A DNA stretch of 61,529 nt, counting the filler, from Sphacelaria rigidula (Eukaryota): NCBI GenBank assembly GCA_964200075.2. It is 10 parts of 10 records of this genome, joined end to end, with 100 filler letters (N's around TTAATTAATTAA, not from the genome) between each part and the next. Parts side by side here need not be neighbours in the genome. Positions count along the whole stretch, not along the records: positions 18,492 to 24,554 come from CAXNAA020022481.1; 9 more parts are not named here. One strand, 5' to 3'. Numbering within the stretch: the first letter of the stretch is position 1; every line of letters begins with the position of its first letter. The notes below the pieces were generated by a model. That model was given only the letters and a program-made list of their open reading frames with translations, had not been told where the DNA came from and searched no databases. Position numbers and translations under genes: made by a program. Shown here one piece after another: positions 6,065 to 43,600 of this stretch.

Positions 6065-6164
6065 NNNNNNNNNNNNNNNNNNNNNNNNNNNNNNNNNNNN
6101 NNNNNNNNTTAATTAATTAANNNNNNNNNNNNNNNNNNNNNNNNNNNNNNNNNNNNNNNNNNNN
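6065..6164. other. Artificial contig spacer (44N-TTAATTAATTAA-44N); identical spacers at 12229-12328, 18392-18491, 24555-24654, 30718-30817, 36881-36980, 43044-43143, 49206-49305, 55368-55467
   Basis: Identical 100-bp spacers with a six-frame stop linker; intervening contigs measure 6064,6064,6063,6063,6063,6063,6063,6062,6062,6062 bp. Confidence 0.97.
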
Positions 6165-11729: not shown

Positions 11730-12328
11730 GCACGCAGGTTGAGAAATGCGGCGGGTTTGAAAGTGGTCGTTGGTCCAGGCAGGTTCAAGATCTGTACACT
11801 GCTGCAGACAAGACACAACCAGGCAACACAACACCTACACACACAGCCCCCAAAACACGCTCAGACACCCACCACTCACGCGCATTAGTTTCAGTGCTAG
11901 CCCCTGCTGATCTACACACGGCAGTCTTTGACAGAAATCCGTTGTGTATTGGACGAATGCCGGCTGCAGGCGTTTCAAGAACAACCGAAAACGTAACAGC
12001 CGATTTTAAATTTTGGGGTTCAACACTAAAATGGAGCTGAAGTCGCATTTCTCTATTGCAGGGAAGATACGAAAGAGTAACACAGAGCGAAAGTATCTTC
12101 CTCCCCAAACCTCCGGAGAAGAAGTTAACCGTTAGACCGCGAGAGTAGGTCACCTGCTGAATCGGCATCAATATTCACTTGGAAAAAGTACACGTGGTCT
12201 AGATGGACTACCAACACCGCGGTCCAAGNNNNNNNNNNNNNNNNNNNNNNNNNNNNNNNNNNNNNNNNNNNNTTAATTAATTAANNNNNNNNNNNNNNNN
12301 NNNNNNNNNNNNNNNNNNNNNNNNNNNN

Positions 12329-16600: not shown

Positions 16601-16989
16601 GACTACTAGTTTATATTAGAACATGATCATAGATTATGATGAAAATGGAAGATAATTAACTATGTTCAGCGTTTCAGGTGCGGAAGATGGTGCTGGGGGC
16701 AAGGTGACAATATCCAAGCGATGATGGCTCGACTGGAGCAAGGGCCGACGCGCCTGTCATCGAGTGTGGCCACCGAGGGAAACATGACATATTATTACTC
16801 ATACAGATCAGGCCCACTGTGGACAGTGTAGAGGCATGGTCATATAGCAAAGATCGGTAGCACGCGCGATCTATAGCTGTACTCAGTACTACAGAATGGG
16901 TAGCAGCACGAGTCGGCCAGCAAGGCGCCGCCCCCCGGCCCGGCCGTGTACCCCAGGAAGAGGCAGCACGTCATCGTGCGGTACTTTAT

Positions 16990-17310
16990 TAGTAGCCTGA
17001 TACGGTACTTGTATCACCAGGCTGTATGTCGCATACGTAAAGTACATGGCTCAACGCACACGATGTGCGTTGAACAAAACGCCGATGTATAACTGCAGAA
17101 TGGCAATCGCACGGCTTGGGCCGCAACGCGCCGGCGCCCCACCCGGCTGTGCATCCAGAGAACAGGCAGGACGTCACCGTGCTGTAGGAGTAGCCTGATC
17201 CGGGACTTGTACCACCATTCTGTATGTCGCATACACAAGGAGTATACCTCGACGCACAACGGGTGCGTTGAACAGAATGCCGGTCGCAACAATAGATAGG
17301 ATTGCCACAC
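16990..17310. repeat. Diverged direct duplication, ~200-bp period
   Basis: AGTAGCCTGAT.CGG.ACTTGTA....CTGTATGTCGCATAC...TGCGTTGAACA.AA.GCCG at ~16990 and ~17190. Confidence 0.65.
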
Positions 17311-18391: not shown

Positions 18392-18948
18392 NNNNNNNNN
18401 NNNNNNNNNNNNNNNNNNNNNNNNNNNNNNNNNNNTTAATTAATTAANNNNNNNNNNNNNNNNNNNNNNNNNNNNNNNNNNNNNNNNNNNNGTCTTATCG
18501 GGGGGGGGGGGGGGGGGGGGGGGGGGGTGGGGGGGGGGGGGGAGGGAGGGGTTCATCGTCCTGTCGCGTCGAGCATGGTTTCACGGGGTCCCGGTTGATG
18601 AGAATAGACGGCGTCGACGCTTGTTGTTCGCAACCGATGTTATCACCGTGCGTGGAACACCTACCTGCTCGTGCTCTCGAATTCGATGTAAGACAAAGCA
18701 CCATTCTGTGCACCAGAGGGAAGGGTTCGAAGGGGAGTATCCTAGTCGTTTTCGTGCCGGAATCTTGTGGCCTATCCATGTTGCGTTGAAACCGACTTTT
18801 TGATTAAGGGGGGGAAACACAAACCCGCAGCTGATCGATTCCAAGACACGAACATTGCTCGTCTTGGTCGTGCCTGACGGACCCCCCGCCACCCTGTCGG
18901 GCATGATCGAGGGTTTGTTCCTCGTGCTGGCGCAGCCCGAGGGGGGGG

Positions 18949-19014: not shown

Positions 19015-21489
19015 GGCGCAGCCCGGGGGGGGGGGGGGGTTATCGCATGACACGGGATCCGCGCGCTCCCACTTTTTATCCTATTGCGTAGAGTAACAAG
19101 AGTGCTCACCCCACTTACTTCTCTCCATTCCTCGACGTACTGAATATGACGCGTCACGGGTTCACCTCCACAGGTAACTTCTTCCGAATAAGAGCTTGTC
19201 CTCGGTACTTCTACTACAAAAAGTTCACAAGTCGGGTTGAACCTCATCTCGAAATTAAACCTCAATTCGCACAATTTGCTGTTATTTGGAGAAGGCACTC
19301 CTTGCCAGACACAACGCGATCGCAGCATGCAGCGGAGGTAGCGTGAACATATACCCAAACCCGACCCTTTGCTCTCATTCCCAACAAAGTATCTGGCAAT
19401 CGCCAAGCCTATCGTGTCATCACTGCGCACATACATGCCAGACAGCAAATCCTACCTTAAGTTGTCACAACACAGTAGCAGCCTTTTCCAACCAACCCGC
19501 CTTAATACCGGGTCAGCAGGGTGTACCGTTCTCTGGGAAACCCCAACTATTCAATATCGCCTCGCACGCAAGTACATACCAGGGAGGTTCCCCACCAACT
19601 ACAACCCATGGCCAAGTGGGTACTACTACGATCAGCAGCCCCCCTTCACCAGAGTCTCCACGAACGGAGATCATCGATTTTCTGCGCAACGCACAAACTT
19701 GCTTTCGACACGCCTTTGGGATAGAATGCAGACGCCCGCGGTGCCCCTGCATACACGAGGTGAATATCTTACCGAGGGGCTTTTACTCTCAGACATACTG
19801 ATCACAACCAGGAGGCGAGAAGCGCACACACCAAAGTGACGAATCAGAACAACCCAACAAAAAACCTCGCCGCATCACGCTGACCCCTGAGCAGCTCGAA
19901 ATGACTTCAGCTATTACCGGACTCGAATTTGAGAGCGACCATGAAGACGGAGCAGAGAACACCACTTGAAGGTGCGCCCCGGGTAGTACCTCACTCCCGG
20001 GGAACCTCAACGATGTGCCGTCACCGAAACCCTCCAGTAGTACGAGTCGAGCAGGAAGCGAGTCTAGCCACGTACCAACGGTCGAAGAAAGAGAAGAAGT
20101 TGCTGCGGCCGCCGAACGTATTGCCACAAACAAGAGTCGAAAAGCACAAGTTTGGGTACAGGCAAAGATCTGGCATCCCCATAAGTTGAGCATGCGACTT
20201 CCTGTCTCCGTCGTGTTGCACACGGGTGCTGGTGAGGGAACCTACGTGTCCGGTACTTCCTAGCAGTCGATTTGTAAGTGGGGAGAAATACCTAATCACA
20301 AACTAGATAAGAGAGGTGCAGGCGCGTTGAGGGCAGCAAACCCGGAGGAAAACAAGGTACCGCCGATGGAAATTCTAGGCTCCTCTACAATACCAGTCAT
20401 CTTTCCCCCAGAAGATAAAGTACGCAATATCGCAGTACGTTTGGTCCAGGGCTTTCCATACGCACCGGTACTGGGCGCTGCATTCTTCCGCAAACACTCA
20501 AGCGTCCTATCATTTGACAAATATCAAGGCTTCCGCCCCACGCCCGACGCACCATCGATACCGCTCCACACCCGTAGCTCGATACTCTCGCCAAATACTG
20601 AACCATCAAGTGCGACCCCGTTGGCTACGAAGACATTCGAGCATCAAATAATTCGGATAATATGTCTGATGTAGCCGAGGGGGCCACAACAGAAGCCAAA
20701 AGTGCCACAACAAATGGTACACCATCGGAATTGACCCCGTTATCAGCAGAAGGTAAACAAGCGTCGAATGATTCGAAGGTTACACCTGACGTAGCCGAGG
20801 TATTATGGGACACGTTCTGTTCTATCATACCCGGGGAAGAAGTTGAAGAACCAGAGCTGTACCGCCCGTCTAGACTAGAGGCCTTCAACCCCTCCATCGC
20901 AACGATCACAGACAGGATAGTGAGTAACAAATTCACGGGTAAGGCAGTTTGGGAAGACGACGGTACTCTGCAGCGGGCATTCTCCCTACTGTCGCCGCTA
21001 CGACTACCAGGCTTTGTCAGCACAGCAATAGGGGAACGCACCAAGGGTCCCCTCTCTCAAGTACGGCAACTGGTACTGATACTACCTACCGAGGATAACG
21101 ATTTAGAGAAAGGCGCGGTGCTAGGCGTAGCGAGAGGTATTCAGTGGTGGGAGCCAGGTACACCCGCAGTGTGCAAGGTAGTGAACAGGAGCCCCAACCA
21201 GAGCTTCACTGAGGCAAAAAAGCAGATAGCACAGACAGTGGCGGTCAATATCGATGACGAGGAACGCTTCCACGCGCTTTTCCTCCCATCTGACCCCGAA
21301 AGCAGCGAGGACAACACATCACACTATACACAAGCACAGACGCCACATGAAGACAACGAGGAAGGAAAAGATACGTACGAGAACACAATCATGTCCAGTC
21401 TCGATGACGCCAACCTCGGACAGCTCAGCACCCCTGAAAAATAAAAGCTTTTATCACTGTTATTTTCGCATTCCGTTGAGAGATGAACG

Positions 21490-22680
21490 ATGTAAACCTG
21501 TGGCAACAAAGCAGCGACGTTTTTCTCCTGCCGAAACTGAAGCAATACAAGCCGAAGTAGAAACACTTACCAACGAGGTATCATTCGGCGGTCAGAGTCG
21601 GAATGGGCAGCAAAATCACTCGCGGTACCGAAAAAAGACGGCACGCTACGCCTTTGTCATAACTACAGGGAGCTGAATGATCTCACGGAAACAGACAGCG
21701 GGGGTCTGGGGGACATCGAGAGCATGCACGACAAGCTAAGTGGAAATAGATATGTTTTCACATTGGATCTCGCCTCAGGGTACTTTCAACTCGAAATCGA
21801 GGAGAAGGACGAACACAAAACAGCCTTCAGAGACGCCCTCGGCCAACTGAGCCAGATCCGAGCTTCTCTACTCAGCGAGTCGGAAAAGGCATCAGAAACT
21901 ACATCAGATAGCTACATCGTAGACGACCAGGACCAGTTGTGGTTCACCGGAAATAAGCATAGACCAACGTTAGCCATACCACGACAGCTAGTTCCTGACC
22001 TAATAGCACTCGTACACGCACACTACGGACACACTGGAATAGCGCACACCACGATCCTGCTACGAAACCATTTTCACTGGAACAATATGAACAAAGACTG
22101 CCGTGACTACGTTCTCTCATGCGGATGCAGACGCAGGAAAAGAGCACGAACACAACAGGTGGCAATGCTACCGAGCCGATTCCTGCTTCCCTGGGATGTA
22201 CGAGAGATCGACTTTCAGCATATGCCTTGTACATCTGCATTAGGCAATTGATACATAGTACTGACTGTCGACCGAGCTTCGAAGTTCCTCTTCGCATATC
22301 CCACACCTACGAAGGAATCAGCACCGGTAGCCCGCATCCTGTTGAACCTGTGTCTAACATTCGGCATGCCCAGATCTATCCGCAGCGACCAAGGGGGAGA
22401 GTTCGCAGCAAGTGTAGTAAGAGCTCTATGCAGATGGCTCAGGGTATCTCTGGACTACGGACCCGCCGACCATCCGAGAGGTCAGGGTGCAGTTGAAAGA
22501 GCAGGGGCTTGGATGCATGACACACTATCCGAACTATGCATAGCATGGCCTGACAGGTGGGACGAGTATGTGGATCCGGCATGCTGGATCAAACGTACAC
22601 TCCCAGACCCATCCGTCCCTTCCAACATGTCCCCGTTTCAAATCCTTTTCGGTCGTGATCCTAGAACCACTCTAGACATC
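21490..22680 (+). pseudogene. Gypsy pol remnant: RT N-terminal part fused in frame to integrase
   Basis: ORFs 21724-22251 and 22342-22944; after KTAFRDALGQL the frame passes directly into the pre-integrase region with no YxDD or RNase H motifs. Confidence 0.85.
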
Positions 22681-23939
22681 ATAGTACCACAGATGGACGG
22701 TAATGACTCCACGACAGACCTGGACAACTTCGTTGAACAGAGGGAACGAAAACCAGACCAGGTTAAGCAGGTCCTGGAAACAAGACAGCAGAACAAACAA
22801 AAGGAAAGACAGAGACATAACGCAAACATCACAAGGCACTCCCCAGGAACGTCGGCTAAGATAGGAGATCTGATGTTAGTTCGAGGACTCGAAAGTACGT
22901 TGCATAGGGATGGACAGCACCAAACACTGACACACGAAAAATAGACGGGACCGTGGGAGGTAGCAGCCACCCCTATTCCGGGGATCAGAGTAGAAGTATC
23001 GATGAAAGGAAGGAAACTACGCCACAGGACCGTCTCCATCACGGCTCTTAAACCGTTCCATCAGCGTCGACCTGAACTGAGACACGCAATGGAGGATGAG
23101 TTCGCCCAGCTAGTATGGGGACCGGACCTAGAAGTCGCTGACATCTCTACAGTAGCCTCACCTCTGTACACACTAACGAATAGGAGAAGTACAACTACGG
23201 CACCTATCCCAACGGTGTGGGAGTATAAAGGCAGGTACCAGGATGGACAAGAATCCGACTGGCTGACGGAAGCGGAAGTGTCGGACAGCTTTCCCCCCCT
23301 CCAACTAGATGTGTTTCATGCCATGTGGGACATGTAACACTCGTCGGTGAGACCCTACCCTCAATCTAACAGGGACGAGTCCACACCGACAAGAGACAGG
23401 GAAGAGGCTATGATCATGCACCCAATAGGACACAGGTAGGACGGTCAGCGGACGACGGAGTAGGTAGAGGAGTAGGGACAGGCGAGGTATATGATTACCT
23501 TGATCCATACTGGCGCGTGAGATACCCGAACGGTGAGAGGTTGGAGTTCAGCAGGAGTGAAACGCGTAAATCAGCATTTTCGAAGTGAGTGATACCCAGC
23601 ACACCCCGTCACTGAATCTACGCCACCAGACGCGTATCCTCCCGAGTGAGTGCCCCACAGGTGAAGAATCCAACCTAGAGTTGAATAAGAGGGAGCAAGC
23701 ACTCAAGCTCGGATACGCTGTCGAAGATGAGAAAGTTTTCGGGCCCCATGGGTGCAGCCGAAAACTGGGAGCAGCCGAACCTGGGTGCAACCGAAACGGG
23801 CCTCTATCCCGTATTCCCAACCATAAAGGTGTGAGTGAAGTTTCCCTCTTCCATTTCACACGGCCTTCGATCGATGGCGCTGGTCTCTACTCAATAAGTG
23901 ATGCCTGATAAAACACTTGGCAAATCTATTGAGGGGGGA

Positions 23940-24386: not shown

Positions 24387-25299
24387 CTGGTACATATTTG
24401 CGTCTGCGACAGTGCAACAACCAACTAAACAGTTGGAACTCGTACTCCCCCCCCCCCAGAGGGTTCGGCAACCACATCAACGAAAGAAGTGCCTGAAAAT
24501 ATATATGTAGGGCCTGTAAGAACAGTCAAGGGACTGCTGCCGAGATAGCCCCCCNNNNNNNNNNNNNNNNNNNNNNNNNNNNNNNNNNNNNNNNNNNNTT
24601 AATTAATTAANNNNNNNNNNNNNNNNNNNNNNNNNNNNNNNNNNNNNNNNNNNNTGCGTGCTTGCGTGCGGTAGGTGGAGATTGTCTCGGGTGGGGGGGG
24701 GTACTGTGAAGTCAATGTTTATTTTACACAATACGTAGGGATAAAAATTGGACACACGTACCGCGATCATGGACATTTGTGCATGACATGTCTTTGTCCT
24801 TGCACTTGTCTATGACCAACTGGCTGAGTGACTGACTGACTCTTTTCCCTCTCTCTATCTGCAGTGTATGACGTAGCTCTCGTACCCGTAAGCAGGATGT
24901 CCCGAGGCACCCGCAGTGTTTCGCGGTATCCATGTGCGTACGACGTACGAATATGCGAATTTTTGCACCGGAAAAACGGGTATACATCGGTTTTTCTACA
25001 GTATGGCGGTCGGTCTGCTTTCATCTAAGATTCACGGTCAAGTTTTCCAAGCCGCTCCCCACCACTAGTCAACGGCTGTCGTTTTTTTTTTTTTTCGTTT
25101 ACCGACGACCCGTCCCTTCGTCTGGAGGAGACAGGATATCGGCGTGCTACCTCTGGTCTAGTGCTCCTCGAAAATATAGTGTAGCATGCATTCGACAGGT
25201 CCAATTGTGAATCGTCGAGTTTCAGGCATTTTTGAAATCTACGCCACACAGACCAATTCCATTTTCATTGCGTAGAATTCTCGCGGCGAACACGAACAG

Positions 25300-35975: not shown

Positions 35976-36045
35976 ACCGTCTCGAAAGGGATGCGTGGTC
36001 AATGGTTAAACGACTGAGGCAAGCAACAAATGAGAGCGCCCCCCT
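35976..36045 (+). mobile_element. F1 mini-copy downstream of a C-run
   Basis: CCGTCTCGAAAGGGATGCGTGGTCAATGGTTAAACGACTGAGGCAAGCAACAAATGAGAGCGCCCCCC. Confidence 0.8.
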
Positions 36046-36069
36046 ATGCGCGCACAGTTCAAATTGTGA

Positions 36070-36376
36070 GGCACCCATGAGGCGGTTCAACCCGTGGTCA
36101 TTGCTGGAAGTACAGAGATACCAGAAAAAAGCTAAGCAACTCTTTAGAGGCTGTCATCTATATGCAGGATAGTTGGTGCGCTTCCCGCCGAACAATCTCA
36201 GCAGGATGCAGCTTGCCCTTGCGTGCGACTAGTCGGACACATCACGGCGCTTCGCGCTCGATGAGCGCGACGAGCCTGGTCCAGCGAAAACCCGGCGTGC
36301 TCCGTCCCAACTTTGTAGGTATGCGAGGTCAATGGTCTTGTGACTACGGCATACAGAATCATGAGTACGCCCCCAC
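36070..36376 (+). mobile_element. Family F2 copy
   Basis: Ends ATGCGAGGTCAATGGTCTTGTGACTACGGCATACAGAATCATGAGTACGCCCCC. Confidence 0.8.
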
Positions 36377-39300
36377 AGCGTGCGCGCGCGCCTCCACTTT
36401 CTCCGCCTCCCCCAACCCCTCAGCCCGATTTCCGTTCTCGGCCCTCTGCCTCAGATCAAATCCTCTCCAAGCCCCACTCCACTCCATTACACGAAACGTG
36501 TACAGTACTTTAAATCACACCGTGTACGTCTGGCCAACATCAGCAGAGTCGCTGGCCATCATAATAAATGTACTTGTTGCATCTACTGTCCGCCCAGAGT
36601 CGTGGGGCAAGATAGATGGCGACGTATCATCGAACACAGTGTGTGCGTATTTATATATATATATTACCCATACGTCAAATATCACCCCCTCTTCCTGCCA
36701 AGTAACCCACGCTCCCCTCTACCCCCTCCGCCCAGATGGTAAGTTTTTGGCAGTTTTTGGCACCATACCAGCACGAGTACCACCAGAACTGTATTGAGGT
36801 ACGCAGTACATCACCCCCCCCCCCCCCCCCCCCGCCCCCGCGCGAACCGCCGGGCGTGTTGCCCGCCCTGGCGTATTTGCNNNNNNNNNNNNNNNNNNNN
36901 NNNNNNNNNNNNNNNNNNNNNNNNTTAATTAATTAANNNNNNNNNNNNNNNNNNNNNNNNNNNNNNNNNNNNNNNNNNNNATGTGGACATCGACTTGGGC
37001 GTCACACCTTGCCTACGAACACGGGCATACAAGACGAAATATCCAACTGCAAACTTGGGTAACACAGCCTGGCCCTGAGCAAGCTTGCGTTTGGTTTCGC
37101 GAGACACCGCGACAGCAGCTTGCACTTCATTACAAACCACACTTGCTCGACAACCACGCCTCGAACCTTGTCGCGCAACGAATCACCATCCATGACATCG
37201 ATGTTCCACTCGCCGCCAGTGACAGAAACCAGCGTGGAAGACGCTGTACGCGGCGAGCGTCCAAACATCACACAATACGGAGTGTAACGGTAGCGTTCAC
37301 GAAAATAAGTATCCAACGCCCACTGAGCGGCTGGCAAATCAACCCAACGACACCGGCTGTCTTTGTTCTAACAAAATGGACCGAAACACACGATCAACAT
37401 CTTGCACCATGCGTTCACAAGCACCTTTCAACCAAGGGTATACGCAACAGCAAATTGGTGTTGTATCTTGAGCGCGTCGCTCAGCTGCGCGATTGCTCGA
37501 TTCTTGAAATGCGTGGCGGTATCACTAACCCAAACACGCGGCACCCCCAGAGTCTTGCACCAATGGAGCAAGTGCTTAGCCGTAACCCCGACGGTGCAAG
37601 CCTCGGTCAGCTCTAACTAAACGACATTGGACAAATCATCCATGATGACCAAAACGTACCGAAAATCATCCTCATCAGGCAAACCATTAACACCTTCAGG
37701 TCCGCTACTTCCAACGTACAGAAAATCAAAGTGAACATCTTCACCTGGCGCAGTACCATGCACAGTATCGCCATACGAACGAGGGACAATCGCACCAGCA
37801 CGAGTGTCTACACAATGCAAATACTGGCGAACGAACTCGCGAGCGTGGGAATCCATGCGAGGCCACACACAGTGTTTNNNNNNNNNNATCAAGCGAGTTT
37901 GTAGAGCCTTGTCACCCGACGAAATCCACAAAACATCATTACTGCCAACACTCACGCGAAACAAACCATCGTCAGCCGAGGCAGCTTGACCGAAAGTCGT
38001 TGGAAAAGAATGAACACCGTCGCAGACTGTTTTTCGCTGCGCGGTACGAATGGCATCCAACGAGGGCAGCGAATCATCGGCATCACACGGACTGTAGACG
38101 GCAAAAGAACAAACAGGCACGATAGGAAGCTTCACCCAGCGAGACAAGAAATTTCCCCAACAATTGCGCTCTCCAGGAATGTGTTCAATGGCATACCGAT
38201 ATTGGCCAAGTACTCCTCTCCAATTTTCAAGCCGTTGTGCCATGTCCTTCGTCACCGATGTGGCACACTCTTCGGGGTTGAAAATGTATTTCAGATTTCG
38301 ATGATCGCTGAAAATGCGAACATCACCCCAACGCAAGTACTCTAGCCTTCGAAATGTATTGACTATCGCGAAACCTTCTTTGTCCATTGTCGCCCACCGC
38401 AACTGTGGACCCTTGAAGCTACCACTGAGAAACGTCAACTGTTCGTGTGACATGTTTTCGAGCGCAATGCCACTACTAAACTCTGCGACAGGCGTTTGCG
38501 TAAAAAAACTAGCCTAGTGGGAATCCGAAGCATCTGGAAACATCAGAACAACGCACCCTGAACGAGGATAATACAGCGGCACCGCTTGCGCCACCAAATC
38601 TTGCGCAGCATGCCATGCCCGCACACGATGTTTCGTCCAAGCGTCCTCCAGGATGATACGATTACGCGCCACCCGCTTGGTCCGATGCGAAGCCTCTACC
38701 ATAAGTTGTTCCAAAAACGCATGAAGCGACGCAACTACTTCGGCCATGCGCGGGAGCGAAGTCCGCAACCAATTCACCGCCTTCAGAAACTGCATCAGCT
38801 CACTAGCGGTTTGAGGGCGTCGCATATTGCTCAAACCTTGGATGCGGACGGGATCATGTGAAACAATACCCTTGGAGTGCACCTAACCGCACCAAACAAC
38901 TTCGCGGGCAAGAAAAAGGCACTTATGCGCAGCGACGAACATACCAACACTCTTCAGGCGACCAAGAATTTCGTCAAGCAAAGCTAACAATGCTTCTTCG
39001 GTTTCAGCAAAATAGGAGACGTCATCCACCCACACTTTACGCTTTAGGCCTCGCGAATTGTCAGTCAGCACACCTCGGAAATACGCCGTGGCTTTCAACA
39101 CGCCCTGTGGGACACGAGTAAGCGTAGACGAACCGTCAGGCGTGACGATCGTGAAGAACTCTCAAGCCTCCGGCGCCAGAAGCATCTGCCAATACCCCTG
39201 TAGCAGGTCCAACTTGCCGAAGCATTGGGCTCCCATCAACTCCCGCGTTGTCTTCTTAGCTTGGCATCACCCCCGGAGACTGTTCCATCTGCGCATTCAC

Positions 39301-40285
39301 CGCCTCGTAGTCGATGACCAAACAAATTTGTCCCACTTCGGCACCGCCATCGCCGGACGCGCCCACACAGCCTAAATTTTCTTAACCAACGAACCAAACG
39401 CCACCAAAGCTGCGATGCATGAGGCAAGCCAAACGGTCTTCAACGGATCGTAGCGACGAGGTATGGCCTTCTCAGCCTCTCTCATTGGCTCTACGCGTGC
39501 TGGCGGATCACCACGCAGCATACGACGAAATGTTTCCACACGACGAGCCAAAATATCACGCAGACGATATGCGCCATCGGCGCTCAGGTCCTTCTGCTCG
39601 GCCTGCTGCACGCTATCCTGTAGCGCACGTTCTGTGGCACCTCTTTCCTCCGCGTCCATAAGCATGTCGCCCCCCCGATCGATCAAGCGCTTCATCGCTG
39701 CATCCGCAGGAACCTCCTCCCCATTGGCTCTTTGGAATGACCGTATGGATACGATCACACGCCTCGTAGCAAGGTAGCTGGGGTTTTCCACGCCGGTTTG
39801 CACCGGCACAGCCCGCGGACGTAACTTATCCAACGCCAGCGGATACGAATCAATCCCAAGCTCCTTCATCGTCGCCATCCCAAACAGAACCACGTGGTCC
39901 CTGGCGGGCATGATAGCGAAAGTGATGGGCTGCAACTCCACAGCCCTCCATGGCGTACGCACGCTAACAGCAATCGGTATCGTTTCATGTATAACCGTCA
40001 CGGGAGTACCCGTGGCGGTCTGTGCCGTTTGCGGTCCATTTTCGAACGGAATCTGCAGCTGAGCGCCGCGGAACTGCGAAGACATTATTCCAGCAACCCC
40101 GCACCGATCGACGTGAGCGCGGACCCAGAATCCATAATAAGGCGGGCCATGAACGAACCTCCGGAACGAGGCAAGGAAAGATCTGCGCGTAAGCATTCTG
40201 CGTTGCGATCGACAGTCACCACACCTGCCGAAGAACCCTGATCAGTACCAAGAGTAACCTGACGCCAGGGCTGCGCTCCAGTACT

Positions 40286-40673
40286 TCTTTTTTTTCCTCA
40301 CACTTTGAACCCCTCCCCATCCTCAGCATGAGTCCGTGGTCTCAAGGGATCAACCCATCTCTCCCCCGGTACGTGCCTGCTCCGTCTCGAAAGGGATGCA
40401 TGGTCAATGTCAAATGACTAAGGCAAGCAACAAATGAGTACGCCCCCCCGGTACGTGCCTTTCATTTTCGTCTCGAGGATTGGGTCAGCACTTCCGCTCC
40501 GCGTCAACTCACGTCACGCAACCCCAGTCGACTACTTTGTTTACTCAAGTTCTCACGCTTTCCACGGTGGAAATCATGCATTACGAAGAAAACCCCGACG
40601 CATCGAGAATCGAACCCCCGTTCTCTCCACCGTAATGGCGACAGTCAGACCATTACGCCACCGGGGCGCGGCG
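40286..40673 (-). mobile_element. SINE family B inserted in the Gypsy gag-protease linker
   Basis: tRNA-like head at the 40673 end, T-run (A tail) at the 40286 end, TSD AGTACT (40280-40285, 40674-40679). Confidence 0.88.
40379..40444 (+). mobile_element. F1 mini-retroelement nested inside SINE B
   Basis: Flanked by 16-bp TSD CCCCCGGTACGTGCCT (40363-40378, 40445-40460); other SINE B copies carry the site once. Confidence 0.9.
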
Positions 40674-43600
40674 AGTACTGGGCATCGATAATTGAGAATC
40701 GGCGGTCCACCCGGATCACGTCGCCGAGTATGCAGACGGCGTTGTTACAGCCGTCGCAGCAGTAGGAGATGCACCAGACACGGATCCTGCCTGGCCGAGG
40801 AGTTGCAAACTATTCGCTCCAGCACTCCCCATCGAAGTATTTGCACCTCCCACGTACACTGTCCGCCCCGACACGGACGAACCTGAAGATCCAAAGTCAT
40901 CACCTGATGACGTGGTGGAAGAAACAGCAGCGGAGGAATCACCATCCGCCGCCGATTGCTTACTACCGCGGCCGCCGCGCCCGCGTCCATGGTTGGCACG
41001 GCCCCGTCTACCGTGACGACCGCCTCGAGATCTTTTATGAATCTCGCGCATTGCCCTGAGCAGCGCCTTGAGCGCGAGGCTTGGGGCAGTCCTTGATCGG
41101 GTATCTGTTGTCGCCGCAGTTGTAACGCGCGAGTGGACGACGCTCGCGAAAACGGCTGCACTTTCTGTTCGTGTTGTTGTTTGCGGCGTGCACCACCTGC
41201 ACTTGCCGCAGAATCGCGCCGGACATGCGCCTCAATGACCTTCACTGGTTGGCGGCATCAAATATTTTGTTGAACAGCACTGTTAGATCATTTTTCCAGC
41301 CGTCTACATACGTTAGTACGCTTCTAACATACGCCTTGCATCCCGGAGGCGAAGTCCCGCCTACCAAAGCTGCGGAAACCGACTCGGCCAGGCCTGGCAA
41401 CCAGCTCCTGTCTTCCGCACGGTACATGGCTCGATCTTTGACGGATGTTCCACCGCTGTGCTGCATAGTAAGAACTTTACGCAGGTCTGCTACGGCCCGC
41501 GCAGTGTCATGCTTGCCGCCGGTTGTGATGTACCCTGCATGCTGCTTCACAGCATCTAGCAATTCGTCGGGAGTCATAGCCCGACGGTCCTTGTACATGC
41601 CTTCAAAGCACCGGTGTATGTACGTAGAGATGGGATGACCTATGCTTACCCTAGCATGCCTAACAACTCCTTGAGCATTTGCAAGGTACAACCTTTCTAT
41701 GGAGTCGAGATATGCTACGTAGAAAACTCTTGATGCTTTCTCGGTCCATACCTCGCCGTACTTCGGCAGGTCTAGCGGCTTACGTACCACCAGCGGCGCT
41801 GCCGCCGCTTGAGCCATGTCGTGTACGATTCAGACACTTCACGGAGAGACTCTTGTCTAACTTGTGCGTCCTCCAGCGCACGGAGCGTGTGCTTCAAGTT
41901 GTCTCCTCCCGTCTCGGGGCCAAACTGCTTCCAGCTGCGGCCCCTTCGCCTCAGCCCAACTCCTCCAACAGTGCCGGGAAGACTATCTAGATATTGTAGC
42001 CTCTGCCAGACGATCTGGACGAGAGGACTTTCAACGAGGGATTCCTCCAGTATCACTGGCCTCGTGCTCGACATGTCCTTCCTTCTAACTTGTTATTATC
42101 ACAGAGTGATCCTCAACAGATCACAAGCCAGACAGAAAAGGGCCATCAATTCAGTATCCCCTGTCCCCTGCCACTGCTTCAATCATACATGCGATTATAC
42201 TGAAACCCTACGGCTTGGTATCATTTGGCTACAGCACGAAAGAGCCAGGGAGCCTTGTGACGGTTTCCCTTATATCTGTTGTAGAAACGCTCAGAGATCA
42301 CCCTCAAACTTAGCAGTTTCGTAGGGATTGATGCTCCAAATGGAAAAGTTGTATTTTTGGCAAGATATCGAAGTTTCTCCGTTCTCTCCCGGCATCTCGG
42401 GGTCCCACTATAGAGACCCGGAAGGCGGTACAGAATGCCTCAAAAGAAGAAAGAATAATATGATGCGTCGTGGGGTAGCCCAAGGGACACATGTACAAAG
42501 TGTAGAAGAGAAACTCGAAAATCTCATACAGTTTTTCATGCCTTGACGTATAATTCACCCAAAAATGGCGTCTGATACTCGAACGAAGTAGTCAGGAATT
42601 CGCACGTTTCAAGCTCACCTCCTCGCACAAAAGCGCCAACCTTCGCGCAGTTTTCAGTAGTGAGATTCTGAAACTTCGCACATATGTTCTAAGGGCTATT
42701 ACGCAAGTTTCTGTGGACGAGTTGTTTCTACTTCCTGATTTTTTACCGTTTTTCGGGGTTCGACGGGAGTCGAGTCGTTTCTTCGAAGTAATCTCCATTC
42801 TGGAACCCCGGAAAACCGGCATTACGATACTTTTTTTCAATCTCTTTGCAAAGACCTGTCGCCGCATATCCCAAAGATGGACCCTACAAAGTTTCGTGGC
42901 CGAACTCGGTTAGCGGATGCTTGAAATTTCATGTTCACGTCAAAGAAGGCCCAAAACGCCATTTTCATACTAAAATCTATAGGGTTGGGTCCTGGACCAG
43001 TATCTACTGCCAGTATTCCTGTACTGGCAGTACTACTTGTACTNNNNNNNNNNNNNNNNNNNNNNNNNNNNNNNNNNNNNNNNNNNNTTAATTAATTAAN
43101 NNNNNNNNNNNNNNNNNNNNNNNNNNNNNNNNNNNNNNNNNNNCCAGAATAAATGGGACGACAACACACAACACATATACACCCAATTTCGTGAAGCTTT
43201 GTTCAGATGACATCATCAAATGGATGAAAATAAATGAACGTTTTCCCCGTTATCAAGGACTCTTGGTCTCGAACTTGGGTTCACATCACACTTCGCACAC
43301 TTTGAACGATTCTTCGGTCGTCATTTACGACGACTCCTATGACTGAATTCGAAAAATGACGACTCAGAGTCGGACCCTAAGAATAAGTTCGAAATATGAC
43401 GACGACTGAATCTTCGCTACGACTTCCACCACGCAAAGTCGTGGTTGCTGTTGATGTGAATTTTTGACTGACGCACTCGATCTTGAGTTTCAACAACAAC
43501 AACAGGTGACCATGCTCATCACAGCACGAACTTGGATTCTTCGTGTTGAAACCCCCAAGCAGGAAGCAGAACCCCGACGAATGTCGGACGTAGTAGCGGA

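Follow-up and report, generated by a model that had tools for sequence, protein, structure and literature searches.

A decayed Ty3/gypsy pol gene occupies the plus strand at ~20.1–23.6 kb of the window, by which is meant the whole stretch of Sphacelaria rigidula DNA that was analysed (61,529 nt). Behind the integrase core its remains continue into a tail which a preliminary description had read as a chromodomain-like module followed, across a stop and a frameshift, by a Tudor-like one. The locus raises the question of whether the two modules are parts of a single protein of the element, which folds they adopt and what they could do at the end of an integrase.

Organization and state of the element

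A protease-like region together with the N-terminal part of the reverse transcriptase (RT) was located at 20147..21849 (+) by tblastn, residues 45–570 of the 1978-aa pol protein P0004 being matched colinearly. RVT_1 is covered at profile positions 1–95 of 205 only, with 27.1 bits, which is under the cut-off of 29.6 (Pfam). At 21844..21850 (+) residue 570 of P0004 is followed in the match by residue 1388, which marks an internal deletion junction. From this gap, at ~21846, it follows that ~818 residues have been deleted from the copy; judged by tblastn against P0004, the deleted part begins with the remainder of RT and includes RNase H and a long insert region as well as the first part of integrase. 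Within the ORF at 21541–22251, RVT_1 is followed directly by Integrase_H2C2 (Pfam).

The zinc-binding domain (H2C2) and catalytic core (rve) of integrase occupy 21851..22941 (+), with Pfam E-values of 2.3e-12 and 7.1e-09, respectively. The integrase C-terminal domain is interrupted by an in-frame TAG at 22942..22944 (+), which was read directly and has no counterpart in homologues. The part beyond it, TGPWEV ... ALKP at 22945..23055 (+), was also read directly; it aligns with TGPWKV/TGPWEV ... KPF of homologues and holds a motif which we take to be of the GPY/F type. Partial RVT_1, Integrase_H2C2 and rve occur in the succession expected of Ty3/gypsy elements, with RNase H falling within the deleted part, and the best PDB match of full-length pol P0004 is Ty3 Gag-Pol (4.6e-66, searched with the cluster member P0055).

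No direct repeat pair representing LTRs was detected around 19–24 kb by repeat search and blastn (word size 7), this search being bounded by N runs at 18392–18491 and 24555–24654 which obscure part of the flanks. As the copy is old, the missing LTRs were not counted against membership of the Ty3/gypsy family. No second copy of the element was found within the window.

In the Tudor module of the copy an R replaces a tryptophan that is kept in 30 of 33 members. On account of this substitution, two in-frame stops, a frame change and the ~818-residue deletion, the copy is a dead relic, a deletion derivative of value only for marking its family.

Reading frames of the tail

In frame 1, the phase of position 22945, the translation runs from TGPWEV through KPFHQRRPELRHAMEDEF and PLYTLTNRR to VWEYKGRYQDGQESDWLTEAEVSDSFPPLQLDVFHAMWDM and is closed by a TAA at 23335..23337 (+), where homologues have no stop. 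The segment at 23056..23334 (+) constitutes module 1, in which a conserved N-terminal EDEF..W segment precedes the chromodomain-like unit (PLYTL...WEYKGRYQDG..SDW...LQLDVFHAMW) with its strand-strand-strand-helix topology. Past the TAA, frame 1 reads HSSVRPYP...EEAMIMHPIGHR (...IMHPIGHR) up to a TAG at 23437–23439. A linker of 31 residues ending in ...MHPIG can be recognized there at 23338..23429 (+), matching the variable linker of ~35 residues which ends in FPIG in homologues.

The reading frame shifts from 1 to 3 at 23428..23432 (+), where the G codon of frame 1 (23428–23430) shares one base with the T codon of frame 3 (23430–23432). Frame 3 reads TQVGRSADDGVGRGVGTGEVYDYLDPYWRVRYPNGERLEFSRSETRKSAFSK and is closed by a TGA at 23586–23588; module 2, a Tudor-like beta-barrel (TQVGR...GEVYDYLDPYWRVRYPNGERLEF...), extends over 23430..23588 (+), this TGA included. 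Given the one-base overlap of the two codons, the 'one stop and one frameshift near 23430' of the preliminary description is exact. The break which that transcript had between 'SRSE' and 'RKSAFSK' is to be corrected, a T (ACG) standing there instead. When the two frames are stitched together, the resulting HPIGTQVGR corresponds to FPIGTEVGR or FPIGTRVEK of intact homologues.

Conservation of the two-module tail

A search with P0001, which consists of the integrase core and module 1 with the TAG entered as X, was evaluated over 2349 candidates, of which 21 proteins reached E ≤ 0.001, the best at 1.3e-141; P0003–P0016 (n = 14) share 44–58% identity with P0001 over 96–100% of the query. The 72-residue frame-3 ORF was searched alone (P0002) with phmmer and, out of 1.84 billion representatives, matched 12 proteins at E ≤ 0.001, led by P0024 (3.5e-17, 76% identity). 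Ten of these 12 matches were inspected, P0028 and P0029 being left out, and nine of them have the same tail. P0031, also a match of P0002, was rejected as a family member, being an unrelated repeat protein. A further 19 proteins were obtained with the tail of P0007 as query.

Both modules were found in one continuous protein in 31 of the 49 proteins examined, and in all 31 the distance from LQLD-F of module 1 to YWRV of module 2 is 66–73 residues. The tblastn alignments of three pol proteins are colinear through the frame-3 module. The integrase of intact members continues in the same frame into a chromo-like module of ~90 residues, a variable linker of ~35 residues and an SH3-like Tudor-type barrel of ~60 residues, with which the protein ends. 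The tail is conserved as protein over sequences that are 40–60% identical, and the two-module arrangement is not a product of chance. Intact members with a continuous frame conserved at the protein level, the check which the preliminary description had named, do exist. Its brown-alga setting also fits, with homologues from Ectocarpus sp. CCAP 1310/34 (P0018, P0048, and P0051, NCBI names) and Nemacystus decipiens (P0009, EukProt).

On this basis the copy is most probably a member or close kin of the Tudor-after-integrase lineage represented by Gypsy-10_Ec32 (see below), having a tail composed of a chromo-like module, a linker and a Tudor domain which would serve as a putative tether.

A shortened form of the protein was also encountered. 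P0006 (912 aa, 291 member sequences, on a contig of 264,535 bases) ends soon beyond the strand WEYRGK... in module 1, without a Tudor domain, and this abundant variant may be a truncated and amplified derivative.

Module 1: a predicted chromo-type fold

Sequence comparison did not connect module 1 with known chromodomains. Pfam Chromo (PF00385) was matched by none of 34 members at E ≤ 0.01 and by none of eight at E ≤ 0.1, a module 1 profile built from ten sequences found no chromodomain among PDB sequences (best E 0.41, unrelated), and hhalign of module 1 against the Pfam-verified chromodomain of a distant Gypsy pol, P0021, gave a probability of 0.35%. Two independent AF2 models, one of P0033 and one of the copy's own 93 residues, agree on the predicted unit, in which two long strands and a third, short one are followed by a C-terminal helix. 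Foldseek with module 1 alone found nothing in the PDB at E ≤ 0.001; the top rows, which are non-significant, belong to the chromoshadow domain of Swi6 (E 0.41, TM 0.57–0.63, target-normalised) and to CHD6 chromodomain 2 (E 0.47), and the other three structural rows are eEF3, New1, and GEN1, proteins which contain chromo-like inserts. The best VIA row is chromodomain 2 of Chd1.

Among the conserved columns of module 1 are W54, W68, and LQLD-F. Aromatic residues are found at W54 in 27/27 members, at Y/F56 in 27/27, at Y/F60 in 27/28 and at W68 in 28/28, with Y37 present in 24/27 and lost in one branch. The branch formed by P0010, P0013, and P0014 lacks the PLYTL tyrosine, a candidate cage residue. 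Going by the predicted models, we consider the chromo-type fold of module 1 to be real, although no membership can be shown at the sequence level. An origin of the two modules by internal duplication was considered but not supported; in hhalign they have no detectable similarity to one another (probability 0.5%), although RGRYQDG..SDW was paired with RVRYPNG..LE.

It is possible that the Tudor of module 2 is the only true reader and that module 1 is a structural or dimerising extension of integrase, chromo- or chromoshadow-like in form and no reader of methyl-lysine, which would position the Tudor domain or mediate integrase multimerisation. This would agree with chromoshadow domains (Swi6) being the best Foldseek rows, with the absence of a sequence link to chromodomains by Pfam, PDB profile and hhalign, with the loss of the PLYTL tyrosine in one branch and with the best VIA row, as Chd1 chromodomain 2 is not known to have a methyl-lysine cage of its own. 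However, W54, Y/F56, Y/F60, and W68 are near-invariantly aromatic, which is compatible with a cage, and a purely structural module 1 is considered somewhat unlikely.

Module 2: a predicted Tudor-type barrel

PF21743, the PTM/DIR17-like Tudor family of Pfam, was matched by module 2 in 25 of the 34 members of the alignment at E ≤ 0.01, with a best value of 3.3e-06. The gathering score of 27.2 bits is reached by P0007 as the sole member, at 27.2 exactly, and P0010 scores 26.0; for P0003 and P0005 there was no match to PF21743, and the copy's own two tail ORFs were without any Pfam match at E ≤ 1. P0033, a natural fragment of 181 residues, was modelled with AF2 from a 34-row alignment (mean pLDDT 85.8). 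In this model module 2 forms barrel strands at residues 126–133, 136–148, 151–155, and 161–164 with short flanking helices, at pLDDT 94–97, and the inter-module linker is of low confidence. The Tudor/SH3-barrel fold that had been proposed for the second module is upheld in so far as a small beta-barrel is predicted at pLDDT > 90 (AF2). A module 2 profile found no Tudor protein among PDB sequences (best E 0.45, unrelated), and Foldseek with the two-module model found nothing in the PDB at E ≤ 0.001.

Among the conserved columns of module 2 are D146, W152, R153, V154, and Y/F156. Residues are kept as Y/F147 in 30/33 members, as an aromatic at Y151 in 32/33, as W152 in 32/33, as Y/F156 in 33/33, as W161 in 30/33 and as D146 in 31/33; the aromatic columns are candidates for cage or core positions. 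As regards the chromo and Tudor anatomy put forward in the preliminary description, the conserved modules, the predicted folds and the PF21743 matches largely support it, a sequence match to Chromo not having been obtained. The two readers suited to a non-standard heterochromatin code which it further proposed are a candidate function, and as a whole the description is supported in part.

By structure, KOW, PWWP-ssDNA, SMN and generic SH3-like barrels are among the neighbours of module 2, with Z-scores equal to those of histone-reading Tudors. SMN is a methyl-arginine reader, and the PTM/DIR17 Tudor family, which the literature used here only classifies, is not known to have a ligand. Such neighbours would suit a tail which recognises something other than histone marks, with nucleic acid, a chromatin protein of the host or a protein carrying methyl-arginine as candidates, and which would act in particle assembly, nuclear import or evasion of silencing and not in the choice of sites. 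This is rather improbable, however, in that the integrase C-terminus is where targeting domains sit in other Gypsy lineages, and the authors of the Ectocarpus study, in the part of the text used here, also interpret such domains as chromatin readers (PMC12477816).

One might regard the frame-3 ORF, which lies in a frame other than that of integrase and has no Pfam match, as fortuitous or as a piece of some host Tudor gene adjoining the retrotransposon; this can be dismissed, as 31 of 49 homologues join both modules in one chain at constant spacing, many of them together with integrase, three pol proteins are colinear through it in tblastn, and phmmer gave an E-value as low as 3.5e-17.

Relation to Gypsy-10_Ec32 and other known systems

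The Gypsy families of Ectocarpus have been described as forming four lineages, with putative C-terminal chromodomains in three Gypsy lineages and a C-terminal Tudor domain in Gypsy-10_Ec32 (Repbase Gypsy-10_ES), the one Tudor lineage reported in the sections of the paper drawn on here (Genome Biol 2025;26:320, PMC12477816). According to the same sections, Gypsy-10_Ec32 is 11,528 bp in full length and has 'many deletion derivatives', the Tudor-bearing lineage has a homologue in Tribonema minus, the chromodomain and Tudor tails are taken as chromatin readers and the Ectocarpus lineages are unrelated to chromoviruses or Chronos (PMC12477816). It follows from this 2025 publication that a Tudor-carrying tail as such was already known. 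A chromo-like module before the Tudor is not mentioned in the sections drawn on here (PMC12477816). A literature search for Tudor-bearing Gypsy elements of brown algae gave nothing relevant beyond that paper. What is new, to a modest extent, is that a conserved chromo-type module stands before the Tudor domain and that full-length members hold an unexplained domain.

The present family was taken as the Gypsy-10_Ec32 lineage because it includes Ectocarpus and Nemacystus proteins. Shared features are a Ty3/gypsy pol, a Tudor domain after integrase and the occurrence in brown algae, and the family copy studied here is also a deletion derivative, as far as the published sections describe the lineage (PMC12477816). 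Moreover, P0018, P0048, and P0051 of Ectocarpus sit within the studied protein family. However, the identity of the copy to Ectocarpus P0018 is 46%, over 53% of P0001, and to its closest matches, P0003–P0015, it is 49–58%. These identities indicate a related family, or another species' version, and not the same consensus. The likeness to Gypsy-10_Ec32 is one to its published description.

A reader-type domain on the integrase C-terminus, with presumed chromatin-guided integration, is shared with chromoviruses, with Chronos of oomycetes and with the three chromodomain lineages of Ectocarpus. Chromodomains at the integrase C-terminus of Gypsy elements reportedly guide integration, as Gao and colleagues are said to have found in 2008. 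With chromoviruses and other chromodomain Gypsy lineages the family further shares a chromo-type fold, represented by module 1 as predicted. Unlike those lineages, it has no match to Pfam Chromo in any of 34 members and no profile similarity to a chromodomain-bearing pol, and it adds a second reader-type module, the Tudor, downstream.

With the plant PTM/DIR17 proteins of PF21743 the family has in common an SH3-like barrel and the matches of 25/34 members, which cover up to profile positions 1–46 of 48. In contrast to PTM/DIR17, in which the domain is part of a host transcription factor, it is here placed on a retrotransposon integrase, and a single family member attains the gathering score while the copy in the window has no match. 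The arrangement of two small reader-type barrels in tandem also recalls the SAWADEE domain of SHH1, the triple Tudor of SETDB1 and the double chromodomain of CHD1. The top Foldseek rows for the whole tail, both non-significant, are SHH1 (E 0.021) and SETDB1 (E 0.032). However, the TM values for these tandem readers are only 0.2–0.3, and the modules of the family are set on a low-confidence linker of ~35 residues.

Proposed function of the tail

If the tail is a tether, as preferred here, the two modules of active copies would attach the integration complex to nucleosomes, or to a chromatin protein, with a particular mark. By analogy with chromovirus chromodomains, such tethering would bias the landing sites of new copies. 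The copy in the window is no longer able to tether because of its two stops, its frame change, its deletion and its Trp substitution.

The chromatin of Ectocarpus is reported to have negligible 5mC and to be without H3K27me3 and H3K9me1/2/3, and its repeats are linked to H3K79me2 and H4K20me3 (PMC12477816). The statements on 5mC, H3K27me3 and H3K79me2/H4K20me3 quoted in the preliminary description thus agree with the part of this paper used here. As brown algae are reported to be without the usual repressive marks (PMC12477816), the target of the modules would point to the marks of 'safe' chromatin in this lineage. Readers fused to integrase decide where retrotransposons land and hence genome architecture. 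What is added by the present analysis is that the fusion is conserved over many copies and at least two brown-alga genera, and that a chromo-type module precedes the Tudor.

The insert between RNase H and integrase

Full-length members possess ~430–550 extra residues between RNase H and integrase, which in the copy were lost with the deletion at ~21846. This insert covers residues ~900–1330 of P0004/P0055 and is also present in P0008 and P0018. By eye it presumably shows methyltransferase-like motifs. Its nearest look-alikes in the ESM Atlas are clusters of cytosine-5 DNA methyltransferases (PF00145; 0.89, 178–192 of 256 features), which serve as a lead only. The identification as a DNA methyltransferase was rejected, these look-alikes being the only indication of it and Pfam and phmmer against the PDB being negative. 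In profile searches of the PDB with the insert, one was swamped by RT and integrase rows and the other gave 0 hits. By tblastn against phages only the integrase core was matched, and a search for homologues of the insert found only fragments of the same element. No domain of this type is mentioned for Gypsy-10 in the sections of the Ectocarpus paper drawn on here (PMC12477816).

A bolder and rather unlikely proposal is that full-length members combine a bipartite chromo-type/Tudor reader with a methyltransferase-like domain of ~430 residues, and that the pair of modules would read a brown-alga-specific repeat mark, such as H4K20me3 or H3K79me2, and steer integration to it. Were this the case, full-length members would carry a composite epigenetic toolkit in hosts which, in the part of the study used, are reported to be without 5mC, H3K9me and H3K27me3 (PMC12477816).

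Other features of the window

Upstream of the protease-like region, an ORF at 19259–19801 (+) contains CFRHAFGIECRRPRCPCIHE, possibly a gag zinc motif of the CCCH type; by eye it resembles CFSHAHGETCQQIIKRGRCPYSHS in P0009 from Nemacystus. This ORF has no Pfam match and no tblastn match at E ≤ 1e-3. The opposite-strand and downstream ORFs are without any Pfam family.

A direct repeat of 104 nt, in two copies which are 77% identical and 198 nt apart, lies before the element along the window at 16981–17282 (+). The region at 36000–42000 is marked by a raised G+C content (up to 0.56), a strong negative GC skew and a positive AT skew, the latter akin in kind to that of the retroelement region (20–24 kb), and may be another coding or transposable element region. 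At the N runs (6065–6164, 12229–12328, 18392–18491, 24555–24654, and onward) paired 44-base runs were observed, with a spacing of ~6.16 kb.
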